Shown: one piece after another, positions 29,254-58,816 of the stretch
Layout: the number at the start of each line of letters is the position of its first letter
How positions within the stretch are numbered: the stretch's first letter is position 1
Origin: a virus
Taxonomy: Duplodnaviria > Caudoviricetes
Length of the DNA stretch: 64,000 nucleotides
Reading direction: 5' to 3' (one strand)
IMG/VR virus record: IMGVR_UViG_3300020399_000132
Location: 32,001 to 96,000 of that record
Made by a program: the position numbers and the translations under genes
Notes under the pieces: model-generated
The model's database searches: none
Seen by the model: only the letters and a program-made list of their open reading frames with translations
What the model was told of the DNA's origin: nothing

Positions 29254-32200
29254 CTATACAGTTGGATTAATTTCCACTCCATAGCCGGGTTCTGCTACTT
29301 TAGGTGATGCATATGAATAAGCATCTCCAACCCTAGTAATTTGTCCTGCTTGAACCATGTCATCTAAGAGTTTTTGCACTTTTGATGGGCTACATCTTAA
29401 TGTTCTGGCAATAGTTGAGGCAGAAGCGGGTTCATCGGAAACAGCGAATTCAGCGCCAACTGGTTCGCCATCGGTACTAGCAAAAGAACTTCGGAACAAT
29501 TCTAAAATTTGATCCTGTAATGAAGTATCTTCATTTGTTTCAGACATTTTGTTCTTAAATTTTCGAACAAAAGCTAATCCTGTACTTTCTTTCATATTCT
29601 TCTCTTCTGGTTCCATTTTTATTTTATTATTAATTTTACCATTTTCTTTTACTTTGGAATCATTTTCATCATCTTCTTTCTTCATTGCTTTAGAAACTGC
29701 TTTCCTTTTTTTATGTAAAAATTTATCAGAATCATCCGCGTCACCATCATTATCAATATCTTTATCTTTACGATTTTTAAACTTCTTTTGAACAGCATCC
29801 GGTTGAACTGCATCTAATCCTTCGCCATCATCAGCAGTATTATTCTTATTAGTTTCTTTAGTTATTATCGGTTCTACTGGCTGTCTCTTACCTAGAATTT
29901 CTTTGGCTTTTTCGTAAGCTAATTTTTTAATTTTTTCTTTAAAAATTCTACGTCTGGCATCGAGTCTTTCGGGTGTTTGATCTTCAAAGTCTTCAACCAT
30001 TTCTCCGTCTGGATCATAACTTCCACCAATTAAAGCAGAACCAACCGCACCTAATACTTTTCCTCTTGTTGATGTCGCCGCGGCCTTTTTAAGACCAGGA
30101 TCATCTGCTAACTTTGTTTGAGTTAGTTTCTTTCTGGCTCTTTCTTTGGCTTCCGCATCCATTCTTTTCTGTTGTGCTTTGTCTGCATCAGCTCCAACTG
30201 CAGCTCGTCCCTGATCAGCTTTAGTTTGAACTTGTTTTGTTTGTTGAGTTTGGGTTTGCGCCTTTTTCTTTTGATCTTTTACGGCTTTATCTGCGATTTT
30301 ATCTGCATCAGATGTCACAGTCCGAACTCCAGCAGTTTTGACTGCTTGAGAGGGCCCGCTAGCGAGATCCTTTACGCCCCTCTTTACAGCACCTCCAATT
30401 TTTTTCAATAGGCCCGGTTTTTGTTTAGCTTTCAGTGATGCTATTCTTTCTTTCTCTGTCTCAATATTTGCTAAATTATCATGATGTGTCTGCATTGCAT
30501 CGGCTTTACGTGTCAGTTTATCTGATTTGTTTTGAACCCTACCAGTGTGCGTCATGAAGTTCGGTAATTCTGCTAACACTTCCTCATCTTCTAATTGATT
30601 TACAAAAGACGCGAATGAAGTTTGTTCATCTTCATTAAGAGAATTATACATTTCGATGACCTCGTCAACAACTCGTTCGGTTATATCTGAATCATCCGTA
30701 ATCATTTGACCACAAGCTTTTTCTAAATCTTCTAATTCACATTCATCTGCTAATTTTTGAACTTCGGGTGAAGGAGCATCAATTGTTCCCATTTTAGTAG
30801 CATAAGCAAGAGAAACTAATCTGCGCTCTGTATTTTTAATTAACCTCTCACCAATTTCTCCCCATGTTAATTCATGATATTTTTTATACATTCCTTCAAG
30901 AATAAATTTATGAGAAGGTATGAAACATTCATCATATTGCTCTGTTTTCATTTTTTTCATAACCGAATTAGCTACTTTTTGATCGGTCATTAGAACCATC
31001 AAAACACTTTGTCGAGCATCTTCTGACATCTTATCTAGATAAGGTGCTAATTTAGCATAATCTTTTTTAGATACTAGCGAAGCGGCACCTTCGATTGAAA
31101 GTCTATCTTTTCCTCTAACAGCTTTGGCTAATTCTTTAATTTGTTGAGCTATTCCTTTTGATGTGGGAAGTTCTTTTGATTCGGTTTGTGCTCCTTGATC
31201 ACACCACCCACAATGTTCTTCGATATCATGATAATTATTAAATATATTTTTAGCCCATTCCATATTTGTTACTGTATCTTGTTTCTTGGAAAAATCTGGC
31301 TCTTCTATTCCTTTAACCCTCTTCTTCAAATTGTCATCCCTGTAATCTTTTTTATTCAAACTTTTTTTCTGCTTTAATCTTTTTTCATCAACTGGCATCC
31401 AACTTTCTTTTTTGGCGCGAATAGCTTTTTTGTAAGGTGAGTCGTTGACATCAGCTGCCGCTCTGAATTTGCTGGCTTGGTTCGCCCTCTTTAGTGCTTG
31501 CTGTTTGCTGTCCCGCCGTATCCTCTCGTCTCCTCTGTCCGCGGACGTATGACGATCTACTTCGGCTCTTTGTGTTGCGGCGTCATCGTCTGCTTTCTTG
31601 GCTGCGCGCTTTAAAAGTTCAGTTGAGAGTTCATCAACTGGCCTCCAACTTTCTTTTTTAGCGTACCAGTCGTCCTTTCTCCTCTCTTGGTCGCTTTTTG
31701 GAGCCGGCAATGAAACTTTTTTCTTTACAGGTGCTTTTTTGTGCATTTGAGGATTTGCGTCTTTGTGAGCTGCATAAGCATCATCTCCTTTATACCAGGC
31801 AGCCCGGACATCATCTTGATAATCTTCCGATTGTCGCTTTTTCTCTGCTTCTTTTTTCTGAAGGGCCGCGGCGAATTTGTTGCCTTGTTTCTCTCTCTTT
31901 TCGCCTTCTTTCTTTTCTCTTGCCTTTGGTGTGGGATTGAAGTAGCTCTTTTCCGCGTCTCTTGCGTCTGATGCTTTATTATAGGCTGCGTTTCTTGCGC
32001 GTTGTAACAGTTCATTCGAAAGTTCGTTGACATCGTCTTGAGCATCTTCCGATTGTTGCCTTTCCCTTTGGGCTTGGGCCGCGTCGTGTGCTGCAGGATT
32101 GCTAGCAATAGAAACTTTCCTTACTCCGCCTTGCTGAGTTTGAAGATTTTTTTTCTTTGCTGCTTCAGCTGCTTTTGCTCGTGCTATAGCAGGATCTATT

Positions 32201-53991: not shown

Positions 53992-54237
53992 TTATACGAT
54001 GTTAAATCTAGGATCTTCAGTTATATGATCTCCCTCTGCAAGGCATGATTTGACCTGATACTTATCTCTAAAGATTTCCATCTTGTTAAAAGCATCGTCA
54101 AAGCTTTCTGCCGTCAGATATAAAGGTGATACATATTCCAAGGTATCCCAAGTACGCATCCATACCTGATACGTCTGATTTTTAGTCATGTGCCTTCTTC
54201 TTTGGTTGCTTTTATATTTTTGATCGTATATCGCCAT
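53992..54237 (-). CDS. Hypothetical early protein
   Basis: First ORF after the early promoter; GAGAGAG SD-like sequence shared with the cobS leader. Confidence 0.55.
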   Translation of the reverse strand: MAIYDQKYKSNQRRRHMTKNQTYQVWMRTWDTLEYVSPLYLTAESFDDAFNKMEIFRDKYQVKSCLAEGDHITEDPRFNIV

Positions 54238-54320: not shown

Positions 54321-54445
54321 CATATTTGATTTCTTGTAATATCAAGAGGTTACTAGTACCTTATTGAAATTATTGATAATCTTTTATCATCAATGATTGC
54401 GACCGGTTACCTATATCTCATTAAAATCATTGATAATCTTTTTTG

Positions 54446-54452
54446 ATAAATA
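54446..54452 (+). promoter_or_regulatory. T4-type late promoter for the synthetase-tRNA unit
   Basis: GATAAATA, the same variant as at 42082 (minus strand), about 50 nt before the start. Confidence 0.5.
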
Positions 54453-54500
54453 GAAGAATTGGAGAGAATATTTAATGAATTTTTTTGGAAAGGAACAACC

Positions 54501-55334
54501 TTGACTAGCTTAATTATACCTACAGATTTTGACAATGCCGTTACCAGTCTTCGTAAATTTTTTCATTCCCGTGGTTTCCTAGAAGTACACACCCAAAACA
54601 GATTATCCATATTAGCCGCTTGCGAAGATCCCACAACTGTCGCAACATATAATTATAATGACATCATATGGCCTTTGCCTCAAACAGGTCAAATGTGGTT
54701 AGAATACGAGCTATTAAATAATCCAGATTTAAAAGGAGTATTCTGTGTTTCAACATCTTATAGACAAGAACAGAACCCCGTTGAAGGTAGACATGAAGTT
54801 ATATTTCCCATGTTTGAATTTGAAGCACCTGGCGACTTTCAGGACTTGCTTAATATGGAAAGAGATTTAATTAAGCACTTAGGTTTCATAATTCCTGATA
54901 ACAATTCATTTCCTGAAAAAACCTACGGTATGTGGTGCGAGGATTTTGATTGTGATGAATTAGATCATGACCACGAACAAATGATATCTGATTCCCATCC
55001 ATCCGGAGTTGGATTTATAACTCAATTTCCTTATCATACTTCCCCCTTTTGGAATATGAAAAAAGAAGGTGATCTTGCTAACAAATGCGATGTAATTATG
55101 GGGGGCATGGAAACTATTGGTTCCGCTGAAAGGTCTGCTGATCCGAAAGAGATGGAAGACCAGTTTCATACAATTTCCGATGGAGAATATGCTGAATTAT
55201 TATTTAAATTATTCGGTAAAGAACGAGTAGAAAAAGAATTGAAAGAATTCTTAAGTCATAAATTTTTTCCAAGATATGGTGGTGGAATAGGTCTTACCAG
55301 ACTTATAAGTGCCCTGAAGATTAATAATGCGTGA
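54501..55334 (+). CDS. AsnRS-like class II aminoacyl-tRNA synthetase catalytic core lacking the anticodon-binding domain
   Basis: Motif 1 LRKFFHSRGFLEVHT, LPQTGQ, motif 2 SYRQE...GRH...FPMFEFE, ETIGSAER, motif 3 GGGIGLTRL; TTG start at 54501 after AAGGA (the ORF track extends it to 54459). Confidence 0.85.
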   Translation: MTSLIIPTDFDNAVTSLRKFFHSRGFLEVHTQNRLSILAACEDPTTVATYNYNDIIWPLPQTGQMWLEYELLNNPDLKGVFCVSTSYRQEQNPVEGRHEVIFPMFEFEAPGDFQDLLNMERDLIKHLGFIIPDNNSFPEKTYGMWCEDFDCDELDHDHEQMISDSHPSGVGFITQFPYHTSPFWNMKKEGDLANKCDVIMGGMETIGSAERSADPKEMEDQFHTISDGEYAELLFKLFGKERVEKELKEFLSHKFFPRYGGGIGLTRLISALKINNA

Positions 55335-55337
55335 TAC

Positions 55338-55448
55338 TCTGGGGTGGCGAAATAGGGAAACGCGGCACGTTGTTTGCGTGTTATCTTTGGTTTGATCGAT
55401 ATAATCTAGATCAAAGATGTGTTGGTTCGAGTCCAACCCCCAGAGCCA
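55338..55448 (+). tRNA. Atypical tRNA-Asn(GUU), 111 nt, with a 39-nt variable arm and encoded CCA
   Basis: Acceptor TCTGGGG/CCCCAGA, G73, CCA; D arm GCG/CGC; anticodon arm GCACG-TTGTTTG-CGTGT; T arm GTTGG-TTCGAGT-CCAAC. Confidence 0.85.
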
Positions 55449-55473
55449 TTAGTAAAGATATATTTATATCATT

Positions 55474-55968
55474 TTAAAACTTAGATATAAATTTCGCTAT
55501 GGGTTGAATAAGTGGAAGTAAAGCAACCGCCATTAGTGCATTCACTCCTGTATGAATTATTGCAATCTGTTTAGTTATTCCTGTGGGCATCCCATCAGAA
55601 ACCATTATTCCAGCCAACCAAATAGTTCCAGTAGTTCCTATATTTGCACCAAGTACAGCTGCGATTGCAGATGGTAAAGGTAAGGCGCCAGATGCAACTA
55701 ATCCTATAATTGCGGTAGTAGAAAGTGAACTAGATTGCCAGAGAAGAGTACATCCAATTGCTCCGAAAAACATATAATAGGGATTTCCTAAAAACCATTC
55801 AAGATGTTCTAAATGACTCATTGATTTCATTCCTCCCGAAAACATCTTAAGACCAATGTAAAAAATTACCAAACCTAAAAGGGTCTGAAATACTGGGTTA
55901 TTAAATTCCATAAAATTTCCTTTTTTATATTTCCACGAATCGTAGAGTTTTCTATCTTTCTTTTTCAT
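55474..55968 (-). CDS. Na+/Pi cotransporter-family membrane protein (single repeat)
   Basis: GLKMFSGGM, QSSSLST, GANIGTT, IIHTGVN; alternative start MEFNN at 55911. Confidence 0.8.
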   Translation of the reverse strand: MKKKDRKLYDSWKYKKGNFMEFNNPVFQTLLGLVIFYIGLKMFSGGMKSMSHLEHLEWFLGNPYYMFFGAIGCTLLWQSSSLSTTAIIGLVASGALPLPSAIAAVLGANIGTTGTIWLAGIMVSDGMPTGITKQIAIIHTGVNALMAVALLPLIQPIAKFISKF

Positions 55969-57326: not shown

Positions 57327-57408
57327 ATATAAATGGATCTAAATCTTCTTTTTCTTTAACAAATTTATATTTAATTCTCAAATAGTGTTTAAGAATATAC
57401 GTTGACAC
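57319..57408 (-). CDS. 29-aa peptide ending DPFIYD, next to the carbamoyltransferase (not in the ORF track)
   Basis: GTG start; MSTYILKHYLRIKYKFVKEKEDLDPFIYD; fills the gap. Confidence 0.45.
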   Translation of the reverse strand: MSTYILKHYLRIKYKFVKEKEDLDPFIYD

Positions 57409-58816
57409 CCGTTTTCTTAGTGAAGGCTTTGGCATCTTCTTTAGTGTTGACAATTGGTTCTCCTTTAATATTTAAAGACGTATTTAATAACACTGGACAT
57501 TTTGTAATATCTTTCCAAATTTGTAATAACGTTTTATGAGGTTCATGCTTAACTACTTGTAATCTGGAAGTCCCATCTAAATGAACAACTCCTGGATACT
57601 TAATTTTAAATTCTTCTGTTGCTTGAAGAGCACAACTCATATACGGCGAAAAAAATCCTCCATTAAAATATTTTGAAACATCTTCTTCTAATATCATTGG
57701 TGCAAAAGGTCTAAAAGGTTCTCTACCTTTTATTTCATTAATTTTATCTTTAATTTTAGGATCTCTTGGATCCCCAAATAAAGTTCTATTACCTAAAGCT
57801 CTCGGCCCAAATTCACATCTACCATTAGCAACTCCAACCACTCTTTTAACCATTAATTCATCTATTATTTCTTGGAACGGAAACGGTCCTTGAATATCAT
57901 AACCAAGATAAGGAGAAGGATCAATGTGGTTTCTTGTTCTTGCAAGAATGCATCCCACAGCAGAACCAGAGTCACCTGGATTAGATGGAATATGGATACG
58001 AGAAAAATAATCTGATAAAAATCTATTGGCACTAACATTTAAAGCACATCCTCCCACAAAAACTATATTACCTGTTTCATTTAATTTATGAATACTAACT
58101 CTTTTTATTATGTCTCTAAAAATGTCTTCATATACCGCTTGAGCAGCAGTAGGAACATCTTCGGGATAAACTTCTGGTCTTTTTGTCCATTCTTTTATTT
58201 TAAGTAAACCTTTATGCCAGGACGTTCCATTATTCCAGAGTTCAAATATTCTTTTATAAACTGGTTCATATGGATATGTCTGTCGGGCTGCAGCTCCCAT
58301 CATAATATATTCTTCTTCATTAGGTTTCCATCCAGCATATTGAGTTAATGCTGAATACATTAAACCTAAAGATTTAGGATATTTCCAATTCCATAACTTC
58401 TTTAACTTTTTACCTTTGGCTTTCCATACAGTTAATGTCTCCCACTCTCCAATCGCATCAATAACCAAAACCATAGTATTATCAAAAGGAGAAGTATAAT
58501 ATCCATATGCTGCATGTGATAAATGATGTGAAGTATATTTCAGTTTATGATTATAAGGAAACTCGGGTGGTTTATAAAATGGTTTTTGTCCGGCATACCA
58601 ACGTCGCGACATTTTTACAAATGGATTTTCATAAAAATAAACTTTGGCTGGTTGCCCGTATTCTTCTAAAACATAATTGAAAAGATTTTCAGGGATTGCC
58701 GGATCGTTCTTTTTTCTAGAAAATCTTTCTGCATCGGTTGCAAATAATAGTTCGCTATTTTCAAATACTGCTATAGCGCCATCATGTGAGCCACAAGTTA
58801 ATCCCCAATAGATCAT
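57389..58816 (-). CDS. NodU/CmcH-family carbamoyltransferase
   Basis: SHDGA, ERFSRKKND, HHLSHAA, DAIGE, GGCALN, EFGPRALGNR, RPFAP, LNTSLN. Confidence 0.93.
   Translation of the reverse strand: MIYWGLTCGSHDGAIAVFENSELLFATDAERFSRKKNDPAIPENLFNYVLEEYGQPAKVYFYENPFVKMSRRWYAGQKPFYKPPEFPYNHKLKYTSHHLSHAAYGYYTSPFDNTMVLVIDAIGEWETLTVWKAKGKKLKKLWNWKYPKSLGLMYSALTQYAGWKPNEEEYIMMGAAARQTYPYEPVYKRIFELWNNGTSWHKGLLKIKEWTKRPEVYPEDVPTAAQAVYEDIFRDIIKRVSIHKLNETGNIVFVGGCALNVSANRFLSDYFSRIHIPSNPGDSGSAVGCILARTRNHIDPSPYLGYDIQGPFPFQEIIDELMVKRVVGVANGRCEFGPRALGNRTLFGDPRDPKIKDKINEIKGREPFRPFAPMILEEDVSKYFNGGFFSPYMSCALQATEEFKIKYPGVVHLDGTSRLQVVKHEPHKTLLQIWKDITKCPVLLNTSLNIKGEPIVNTKEDAKAFTKKTGVNVYS

Follow-up and report, generated by a model that had tools for sequence, protein, structure and literature searches.

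An enzyme family derived from the asparaginyl-tRNA synthetase core, paired in marine phages with an unusual tRNA(GUU) and possibly linked to pyrimidine synthesis

Introduction

Why would a marine phage encode, side by side, the bare catalytic core of an asparaginyl-tRNA synthetase (AsnRS) and an abnormal tRNA-Asn(GUU)? The question is raised by a 64,000-nt stretch of DNA (the window; positions 32,001 to 96,000 of IMG/VR record IMGVR_UViG_3300020399_000132), which is part of a 177-kb T4-like marine phage genome rated complete by CheckV. Enzyme gene and tRNA, together referred to as the cassette, form a plus-strand island among minus-strand genes, as the initial annotation of this DNA had noted, and we use FAM as a working label for the AsnRS-derived enzyme family encoded at window positions 54501-55334 (+). 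The initial annotation took the two for a phage-specific, co-evolved pair in which the enzyme reads a long variable arm of the tRNA in place of the anticodon, and which would either serve a translation system independent of the host or supply aminoacyl-tRNA for a non-ribosomal reaction. Full-text literature searches gave no paper on FAM, on the cassette or on an Asn-based pyrimidine route. A 2010 comparison of cyanophages merely lists the gene, as 'tRNA ligase' (T4-GC 194), the PHROGs entry phrog_29758 is of 'unknown function', and database labels read 'tRNA ligase' or 'aspartyl/asparaginyl-tRNA synthetase'.

The standard teaching on de novo pyrimidine synthesis is of a single universal pathway with six steps. 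Our analysis partly supports the interpretation of the initial annotation and adds a link to this pathway that it had missed. Judging from sequence, gene context and distribution, we consider it probable that FAM acts in pyrimidine synthesis. The combined reading that we favour, in which the AsnRS-derived enzyme starts pyrimidine synthesis and the phage tRNA is a non-decoding carrier of Asn or Asp, is put forward tentatively and at somewhat less than an even chance.

Results

FAM is derived from the catalytic core of AsnRS

The reading frame of the enzyme gene is open from position 54459 (291 aa), and we place its start at TTG 54501, since the relatives (80+) keep the N-terminus M-T-x-L-I-x-P. 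The sole Pfam match is to the class II D/K/N core (PF00152, E = 1.7e-18, residues 27-286 of the 291-aa frame). An N-terminal oligonucleotide-binding (OB)-fold anticodon-binding domain was found neither by Pfam nor in the AlphaFold model (predicted local distance difference test score, pLDDT, 88), and the protein begins at motif 1. The closest structures in a Foldseek search are AsnRS and aspartyl-tRNA synthetase (AspRS) catalytic domains (template modelling score, TM, 0.74-0.79), with AsnRS 1x54 as the top match. These three analyses confirm the class II core of about 277 aa without an OB domain that had been described initially.

A search with the family profile likewise found AsnRS best (2xgt, E = 4.8e-10), then AspRS, with lysyl-tRNA synthetase (LysRS) weaker than the archaeal-type asparagine synthetase AS-AR; the match to AS-AR (3p8t, E = 9e-4) covers residues 62-153 only. 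The NCBIfam models for AsnRS, AspRS, LysRS, AS-A and EpmA scored 12-38 bits against cut-offs of 264-1026. All individual values are below threshold, with 28.2 and 31.9 bits for the AsnRS models TIGR00457 and NF003037 (cut-offs 342.6 and 414), 27.4 and 17.8 bits for the AS-A models NF005055 and NF005053 (389 and 322), and 23.4 and 18 bits for the EpmA models (264 and 287). In a maximum-likelihood tree, obtained by a quick IQ-TREE search and with very long branches, FAM is monophyletic (SH-like approximate likelihood ratio test, SH-aLRT, 99) and sister to the AsnRS cores (92), apart from AspRS and LysRS; the tRNA-linked enzymes form two well-supported clades within it.

The alignment shows an AsnRS-type A-C-E signature. 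Where AsnRS has Q-S-G-Q-L-Y-x-E and AspRS has Q-S-P-Q-x-Y-K-Q, FAM has Q-T-G-Q-M-W-L-E, so that the AspRS lysine is missing; its G-S-A-E-R is of the Asx type (GGSER in AsnRS), there is no LysRS-type E-L-N-D, and the arginines of motifs 2 and 3 are intact. It is thus strongly indicated that FAM keeps the residues for binding ATP and an Asn-type amino acid. A search of 1.84 billion representative proteins returned 267 FAM clusters at E < 1e-30, nearly all of 260-380 aa. On these comparisons, FAM is a family derived from the AsnRS catalytic core that has not been described previously.

Cellular FAM genes stand among pyrimidine genes

The label 'phage-specific' does not hold, as FAM is common in cellular genomes that lack the tRNA. 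When one genome was scanned for each prokaryotic species, 414 homologues, 55-63% identical to the window protein, were identified in Patescibacteria, Rickettsiales (Bandiella/Midichloriaceae, Rickettsiaceae), Dependentiae, and Bacteroidota. Phage and cellular members have in common 53 positions that are conserved to 95% or more, among them the arginines of motifs 2 and 3, and only four positions (T2, L4, P7, and N33) differ consistently between the two groups, which makes the same chemistry likely in both.

Two of the 267 clusters are fusion proteins, PyrD+FAM (P0123) and FAM+PyrF (P0145). Both sit in pyrimidine gene clusters, and identity between the two clusters is only about 25%; with P0145 as query, no related locus was found in IMG/VR. 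Bandiella/Midichloriaceae carry the operon FAM-PyrF-PyrE-PyrD-Prs-transketolase, Prs being phosphoribosyl pyrophosphate (PRPP) synthetase, and a Rickettsiaceae locus (L128) has the order FAM-PyrD-Prs. A gene resembling uridine monophosphate (UMP) synthase, PyrD and FAM are adjacent in two Bacteroidota loci (L134, L165), and in a third (L169) the UMP-synthase-like gene is two genes away from FAM. Phage-type loci also include PyrD-like (L092, L107), PyrF-like (L016-19, L045), PyrE-like (L054), or Prs (L014) genes. A Prs gene is likewise found in the phage genome studied here, outside the window (G000:C1:106380-107312 (-)), and its product is 83% identical to the Prs adjoining the cassette in L014. 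A different context, the block SerRS - 275-aa unknown protein - Dus - FAM - ... - DnaX, is seen in Patescibacteria (L094, L099, and 17 other Saccharibacteria/Patescibacteria loci).

The distribution of FAM is complementary to that of the early pyrimidine enzymes. Aspartate carbamoyltransferase (PyrB) is absent in 7/7 FAM-positive genomes of two sampled orders: in one Bacteroidota order it is missing from 3/3 FAM-positive versus 6/58 FAM-negative genomes (Fisher p = 0.0023), and in the second order from 4/4 versus 0/17 tested (p = 1.7e-4). The OTCace_N domain is absent in 9/10 FAM-positive genomes and true carbamoyl-phosphate synthetase (CarB) in 10 of the 12 tested, and a PyrC-type match was obtained in none of the seven FAM-positive genomes outside Bacteroidota (Rickettsiales-type, L148, Dependentiae, Patescibacteria). 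This pattern strongly indicates that cellular FAM replaces the first pyrimidine steps, i.e., carbamoyl-phosphate synthetase and aspartate carbamoyltransferase, with dihydroorotase added to the list where genomes are small. The simplest reading of the distribution is that FAM would supply dihydroorotate or its precursor without carbamoyl phosphate. A plain dihydroorotase substitute fed by carbamoyl-aspartate is unlikely because most carriers also lack CarB and PyrB.

We also considered whether FAM stands in for the AsnRS that small genomes lack. Five small FAM-positive genomes are all without AsnRS and all have GatB, and the AsnRS of FAM-positive Bacteroidota is normal; we therefore rejected the view that FAM is simply a substitute for AsnRS. 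As a separate observation, TAG and TGA stops lie in frame within the enzyme gene of one genome of the Bandiella order (G086:C13:19000-19703), suggesting that the gene was lost recently.

In phages the enzyme is paired with a tRNA

The tight linkage of enzyme and tRNA reported for the window is a conserved trait of phages. More than 597 IMG/VR loci contain FAM, and thousands of family members are present in the protein database. Of the 78 IMG/VR loci with enough downstream sequence, 72 (92%) have a tRNA directly 3' of the enzyme gene according to a covariance model, at a spacing of -17 to +15 nt or of 60-230 nt. The expectation that a long-arm GUU tRNA always follows the homologues is largely borne out for the tRNA as such in these loci and fails for the arm, which is long in only 50 of 61 distinct tRNAs. 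The Prochlorococcus phages P-SSM7, P-SSM2, and P-SSM5 encode a 61-62% identical 'tRNA ligase' (T4-GC 194), and an 85-88-nt tRNA-Asn(GUU) begins within 7-10 nt of its end; in P-SSM2 this is the only tRNA. The position of the cassette in the genome differs among P-SSM7, P-SSM2, and the window phage. No cassette-type tRNA (at least 65 bits) was detected away from FAM in the fetched loci.

The tRNA is present in only 5 of 80 fetched cellular loci, all five on contigs of marine metagenome-assembled genomes; these loci look phage-derived, since their enzymes fall inside the tRNA-linked phage clades. Nor was a dedicated cassette-type tRNA found elsewhere in FAM-positive cellular genomes or huge phages, where the matches are tRNA-Leu or tRNA-Pro. 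A tRNA-like gene of 118-162 nt is present in some Bacteroidota (L186:61-178 (+), L189 (-), G127:C259:8760-8877, G164:C47:34382-34516); it combines U1:A72 and G73 with the anticodon GUC, U37, and a variable arm of 45-62 nt or longer, and it adjoins a regulator of the Lrp/AsnC family. As a FAM partner this gene was rejected, because it occurs in 20/61 genomes of one order irrespective of FAM.

Enzyme-tRNA gaps of 110-230 nt hold a mini open reading frame (the gaps of L011, L016, L023, and L025; also L015, L021, L024, L036, and L055). In the peptide encoded by one type, a charged helix comes after I-P-[IV]-Y-K-N-G-x-G-[IV]-H-E; the other type encodes a C2H2 zinc-finger-like peptide, FYxxYGFxSCFEC...H...H; these peptides may be a third component of the cassette.

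The tRNA keeps its loading determinants and relaxes its decoding determinants

ARAGORN and a whole-window Rfam scan at the gathering threshold both left the cassette tRNA of the window undetected. It was recovered by a local Rfam scan (RF00005, 41.5 bits against a gathering score of 29, E = 1e-7, 55338-55445, with a 36-nt insertion in the variable region) and by a custom covariance model trained on 32 cassette tRNAs, in which it scores 82 bits. The abnormal tRNA-Asn(GUU) exactly 3 nt after the TGA is thereby confirmed. The cloverleaf is also well supported by covariation, with 98.9% of cells paired and compensatory double changes in 18/20 pairs, which 0/500 shuffles equalled.

Position statistics were taken over the 61 distinct cassette tRNAs. 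U1 is found in 61/61, A72 in 58/59, and G73 in 59/59; G34 and U35 are each invariant (61/61), and U36 is present in 60/61, the single exception having the anticodon GUC. Position 37 is U in 49, G in 9, and A in 3, i.e., A37 is missing in 95%, and position 33 is U in 47, A in 7, and C in 7, so that U33 is missing in 23%. The exceptional tRNA (L059:3868-3966), with its Asp anticodon, also has an altered T loop, TCCGAAC.

The D arm of the cassette tRNAs is Leu/Ser-like, with a 3-bp stem and an 11-nt loop. The variable region measures 5-7 nt in 11/61 and 13-29 nt in 46/61, and reaches 38-39 nt only in the small clade of the window. An arm of at least 10 nt that forms a hairpin, as in type II tRNAs, is found in the window tRNA and in 50/61 family members. 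The long variable regions fold as hairpins of mutually unrelated sequence, and proteins 82-86% identical to the window's FAM are paired with arms of 7, 20, 29, or 39 nt. Because the arm is absent in some tRNAs and its length shifts between close relatives, it cannot be a conserved recognition element. We therefore rejected the long arm, missing in 18% of the tRNAs and ranging from 5 to 39 nt overall, as the identity element of the enzyme, and with it the proposal that the arm is read in place of the anticodon.

The phage genome encodes a second tRNA-Asn(GUU) just beside its Prs gene, outside the window (G000:C1:107775-107849 (-)). This tRNA is fully canonical, with U33, A37, a 5-nt variable loop, and a 4-bp D stem, features from which the window tRNA departs by its U37, its 39-nt variable region, and its 3-bp D stem. 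Since the same phage encodes a canonical tRNA-Asn, the odd tRNA is not needed for decoding. Taken together, the cassette tRNA appears to have kept the determinants for loading and relaxed those for decoding, and it looks unfit for ordinary decoding.

Genomic surroundings of the cassette

The features of the locus are collected in Table 1. The neighbouring genes are typical of cyanomyoviruses and include a gp43-type DNA polymerase, a CobS-like ATPase, and a carbamoyltransferase.

Table 1. Features of the cassette and its surroundings (positions in the window)
Feature	Position	Strand	Remarks
Small gene	53992-54237	-	
Sigma-70 consensus promoter (12/12)	54320-54292	-	TTGACA, 17 nt, TG-TATAAT
Direct repeat ATTGATAATCTTTT	54369-54382 and 54427-54440	+	just ahead of the late-promoter motif
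ATAAATA, T4-type late-promoter-like motif	54446..54452	+	about 48 nt 5' of the start codon; promoter function putative
Shine-Dalgarno-like GGAAAGGAA	54487..54495	+	GAAAGGA invariant or nearly so in 8 aligned relatives
FAM gene, 277-aa class IIb catalytic core (phrog_29758)	54501..55334	+	TTG start, TGA stop 55332-55334; without anticodon-binding domain
Non-canonical tRNA(GUU)	55338..55448	+	111 nt, CCA encoded; U1:A72, G73, 3-bp D stem with 11-nt loop
Anticodon GTT	55372..55374	+	loop UUGUUUG; position 37 (55375) is T, not A
Variable region (extra arm)	55382..55420	+	39 nt, hairpin of about 13-15 bp; -11.4 kcal/mol; z = -3.35 versus shuffles
Perfect late-promoter motif TATAAATA	55461-55468	-	13 nt past the tRNA 3' end
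Gene for 164-aa protein	55474-55968	-	half of a Na+/Pi-cotransporter domain (PF02690); convergent with the tRNA
NodU/CmcH-type carbamoyltransferase gene	57389-58816	-	three genes from the cassette

The ATAAATA motif that the initial annotation had taken for a late promoter is present at the place described. The word is depleted across the window (20 observed versus 53.6 +/- 7.6 expected). Nearly all genes are encoded on the minus strand, and that strand also carries 18 of the 20 copies, a pattern that a genuine promoter word, avoided elsewhere, would produce. The TAAATA core is unchanged in eight aligned relatives, and the conserved GAAAGGA sits 5-6 nt ahead of the TTG start. On account of the depletion, the strand bias, and the retention of TAAATA and the Shine-Dalgarno sequence in relatives, promoter function is plausible, not proven.

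Several other signals flank the cassette. Both copies of the direct repeat are retained in the nearest relative, L006, and one copy in L009; the repeat may be an operator or a recombination scar. The sigma-70 consensus promoter stands back to back with the cassette and is oriented toward the small minus-strand gene. The perfect late-promoter motif beyond the tRNA is directed back into the cassette and could give rise to antisense transcripts over tRNA and enzyme gene, or to read-through to the same small gene. A homologue of the PF02690 protein occurs near the cassette in 17/85 viral loci. P-SSM2 and P-SSM7 each have a carbamoyltransferase of the NodU/CmcH type too, and it is conceivable that this enzyme acts with FAM in ring building.

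Discussion

A possible Asn-based entry into pyrimidine synthesis

The combined reading that we favour joins the two halves of the evidence: the operons and the complementary distribution of cellular FAM, and the conserved tRNA of the phage cassette. The AsnRS-type pocket with intact adenylation residues suggests that FAM would activate Asn, or Asp as in AS-AR, with ATP. In one possible route, Asn would be adenylated to Asn-AMP, which would react with CO2 to an N-carboxyanhydride; attack by the side-chain amide would then close the ring to dihydroorotate. No carbamoyl phosphate would be consumed, and the product would be dihydroorotate or a direct precursor. Together with its own Prs, the phage would use FAM to boost pyrimidines for DNA synthesis late in infection.

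Bacterial GatCAB recognises U1-A72 and the D-loop of the tRNA (PMC2811023), and tRNA-dependent synthesis is the sole Asn route of many bacteria (PMC2330236). The cassette tRNA would be loaded by host enzymes, with G34-U35-U36 and G73 serving AsnRS or a non-discriminating AspRS and U1:A72 serving GatCAB, and its loss of A37 and frequent loss of U33 would keep it out of ribosomal decoding. The charged tRNA would bring an asparaginyl (or aspartyl) residue to the active site of FAM, where Asn-tRNA would be chemically equivalent to Asn-AMP, and a dedicated tRNA would separate pyrimidine flux from translation. A carrier role is the most likely one for a tRNA that keeps its loading determinants and has lost its decoding determinants. 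In its most specific form, the proposal is that FAM closes tRNA- or AMP-bound Asn with CO2 into dihydroorotate, a one-step replacement of carbamoyl-phosphate synthetase, aspartate carbamoyltransferase, and dihydroorotase, with the private phage tRNA(GUU) feeding only that reaction. This version is doubtful, and we would be inclined to bet against it.

A number of observations weigh against these proposals. On the side of the enzyme, two complete Patescibacteria genomes carry FAM, placed there in the SerRS-Dus-FAM-DnaX block, and lack PyrD, PyrF, and PyrB, so that a pyrimidine role cannot explain every FAM member; the genome of the window phage itself has neither PyrD nor PyrF; FAM-positive Bacteroidota have PyrC-like genes, scoring under the curated cut-off, and the three large ones all have AsnRS. 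The precedent of AS-AR shows that an AsnRS-like pocket can equally mean that Asn is made from Asp. On the side of the tRNA, cellular FAM works without a dedicated tRNA, which means that the enzyme does not need one, and some viral FAM genes lack the cassette tRNA as well (L047, L061, L062, L064, L073, and homologues in huge phages). The phage enzymes have no basic residues specific to the tRNA-linked clades and are very acidic (median isoelectric point 4.76, net charge -19). Host class IIb synthetases might be impeded by the enlarged D-loop and the long arm, as might GatCAB, which reads the D-loop. Both the chemistry and the carrier role are inferences from sequence, context, and distribution.

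Alternative explanations

FAM could be a pyrimidine or other metabolic enzyme that acts on a free amino acid, with the tRNA doing a separate job within a co-travelling mobile module, for example as a decoy or nuclease-resistant spare against host anticodon nucleases, as a regulator, or as the RNase P-processed 3' end of an mRNA. The absence of a dedicated tRNA from cellular FAM, from some viral FAM genes, and from huge phages would fit such an arrangement, as would the different places that the cassette occupies in P-SSM7, P-SSM2, and the window phage and the giant-arm tRNA(GUC) with U1:A72, G73, and U37 that 20/61 Bacteroidota genomes carry unrelated to FAM. It is harder to reconcile with 92% adjacency over two deep phage clades, often at 3-10 nt or overlapping the stop codon, with an anticodon that fits the amino-acid family of the enzyme in 60/61 cases (and reads Asp, GUC, in the exception), and with the lack of any cassette-type tRNA away from FAM in the fetched loci. 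We regard this separation of enzyme and tRNA as unlikely.

A private orthogonal translation pair, the first option of the initial annotation, would have FAM charge the odd tRNA with Asn or Asp via the acceptor end, and the arm repel host synthetases. Such a pair would decode AAY codons in late phage translation independently of host AsnRS, GatCAB, and anticodon nucleases. Class II synthetases approach the tRNA from the variable-loop side, so that a long arm could serve as an anti-determinant. The tight and conserved adjacency, which makes co-transcription likely, the AsnRS-type pocket with its intact adenylation residues, the near-invariant GUU (60/61) with U1:A72 and G73 matching tRNA-Asn identity, the two well-supported clades of tRNA-linked enzymes, and P-SSM2, in which the cassette tRNA is the only one, are all as such a pair would have them. 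The tRNA itself argues otherwise: 95% of the family members are devoid of A37 and 23% of U33, 18% have no long arm, the length of the arm is unstable, and the phage has a canonical tRNA-Asn besides. GUU would drift if neither decoding nor an anticodon-reading enzyme mattered, homologues 55-63% identical and with the same 53 near-invariant residues stand in pyrimidine operons without such a tRNA, and the phage clades have no added basic surface residues. A translation system of this kind is thus distinctly unlikely, and the evidence agrees better with the other option of the initial annotation, in which the pair would supply aminoacyl-tRNA for a reaction off the ribosome.

Least likely of all, and in our view improbable, is an asparagine synthetase of the AS-AR/AsnA type (Asp + NH3 + ATP -> Asn), acting on the free amino acid or on tRNA as a GatCAB substitute, with the tRNA merely helping an A+T-rich phage to decode or load more Asn: the architecture is the same (an AsnRS core of about 280-290 aa minus the anticodon-binding domain), there is a weak profile match to 3p8t (E = 9e-4) and NF005055, motif 3 (GGGIG-x-TR) presumably resembles that of AsnA, and small FAM-positive genomes lack AsnRS, but the score is far under the AS-A cut-off (27 bits versus 389), free Asn would be useless for translation in genomes without AsnRS, the PyrD/PyrE/PyrF fusions and operons and the anticorrelation with PyrB and CarB would be left unexplained, and the cassette tRNA is a poor decoder.

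Significance and comparison with known systems

If FAM does start pyrimidine synthesis, nucleotide metabolism would gain a new entry point, through a synthetase-derived enzyme in place of the first three enzymes, and this would explain the seemingly incomplete pyrimidine pathways of Rickettsiales-type symbionts, candidate-phyla bacteria, and some large Bacteroidota. Given its abundance in phages (thousands of metagenomic proteins and over 597 IMG/VR loci, besides P-SSM2, P-SSM5, and P-SSM7 in culture), the cassette would then be a widespread auxiliary metabolic module of the ocean. The pair also holds practical interest, irrespective of what it does, as a supply of orthogonal tRNA/enzyme parts.

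Among characterised enzymes, AsnRS (Brugia 2XGT, human 8TC8, P. horikoshii 1X54, and T. thermophilus 9SH8) has the same fold (TM about 0.76-0.79 over the query), shares motifs 1-3 and the AsnRS-type signature residues with FAM, and is its sister group in the tree. FAM differs from it by the missing OB domain, by an identity of only about 20%, by an extra helical hairpin before motif 3, and by its occurrence in pyrimidine operons rather than translation contexts. AS-AR (3P8T) and AsnA are likewise AsnRS/AspRS-derived cores of similar size without an anticodon domain, which activate a carboxylate with ATP and use no tRNA. In contrast to these, to which the sequence match is marginal, FAM is found beside pyrimidine genes, has a dedicated tRNA in phages, and occurs where free Asn could not serve translation. 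EpmA (GenX/PoxA) and glutamyl-queuosine tRNA-Asp synthetase (GluQRS, YadB) are also synthetase cores whose anticodon domain has been lost, and they attach an activated amino acid to a non-canonical acceptor, EF-P for EpmA and queuosine-34 of tRNA-Asp for GluQRS; however, the pocket of FAM is of the Asn type and not of the Lys type as in EpmA, and GluQRS is a class I enzyme.

The cassette tRNA resembles the type II tRNAs for Leu, Ser, Tyr, and Sec in its 3-bp D stem, large D loop, and extra hairpin arm, and our covariance model cross-matches tRNA-Leu at 55-68 bits. It differs from them in its anticodon GUU, in U1:A72 and G73 (Asn identity), in U or G at position 37, and in an arm that measures 5-39 nt or is absent.

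Aminoacyl-tRNA has precedents as a metabolic substrate in the non-discriminating AspRS (ND-AspRS) with GatCAB and in the Glu-tRNA of haem synthesis, and of the GatCAB determinants the cassette tRNA retains U1:A72 (PMC2811023). The non-proteinogenic tRNA-Gly of Staphylococcus cell-wall synthesis is a precedent for a dedicated tRNA that is kept off the ribosome. We know of no tRNA-dependent metabolite system that feeds nucleotide synthesis, is phage-borne, or pairs the tRNA with a synthetase paralogue. If the carrier role that we favour is true, a tRNA that is loaded and does not decode would be the second natural case of a tRNA reserved for metabolism.

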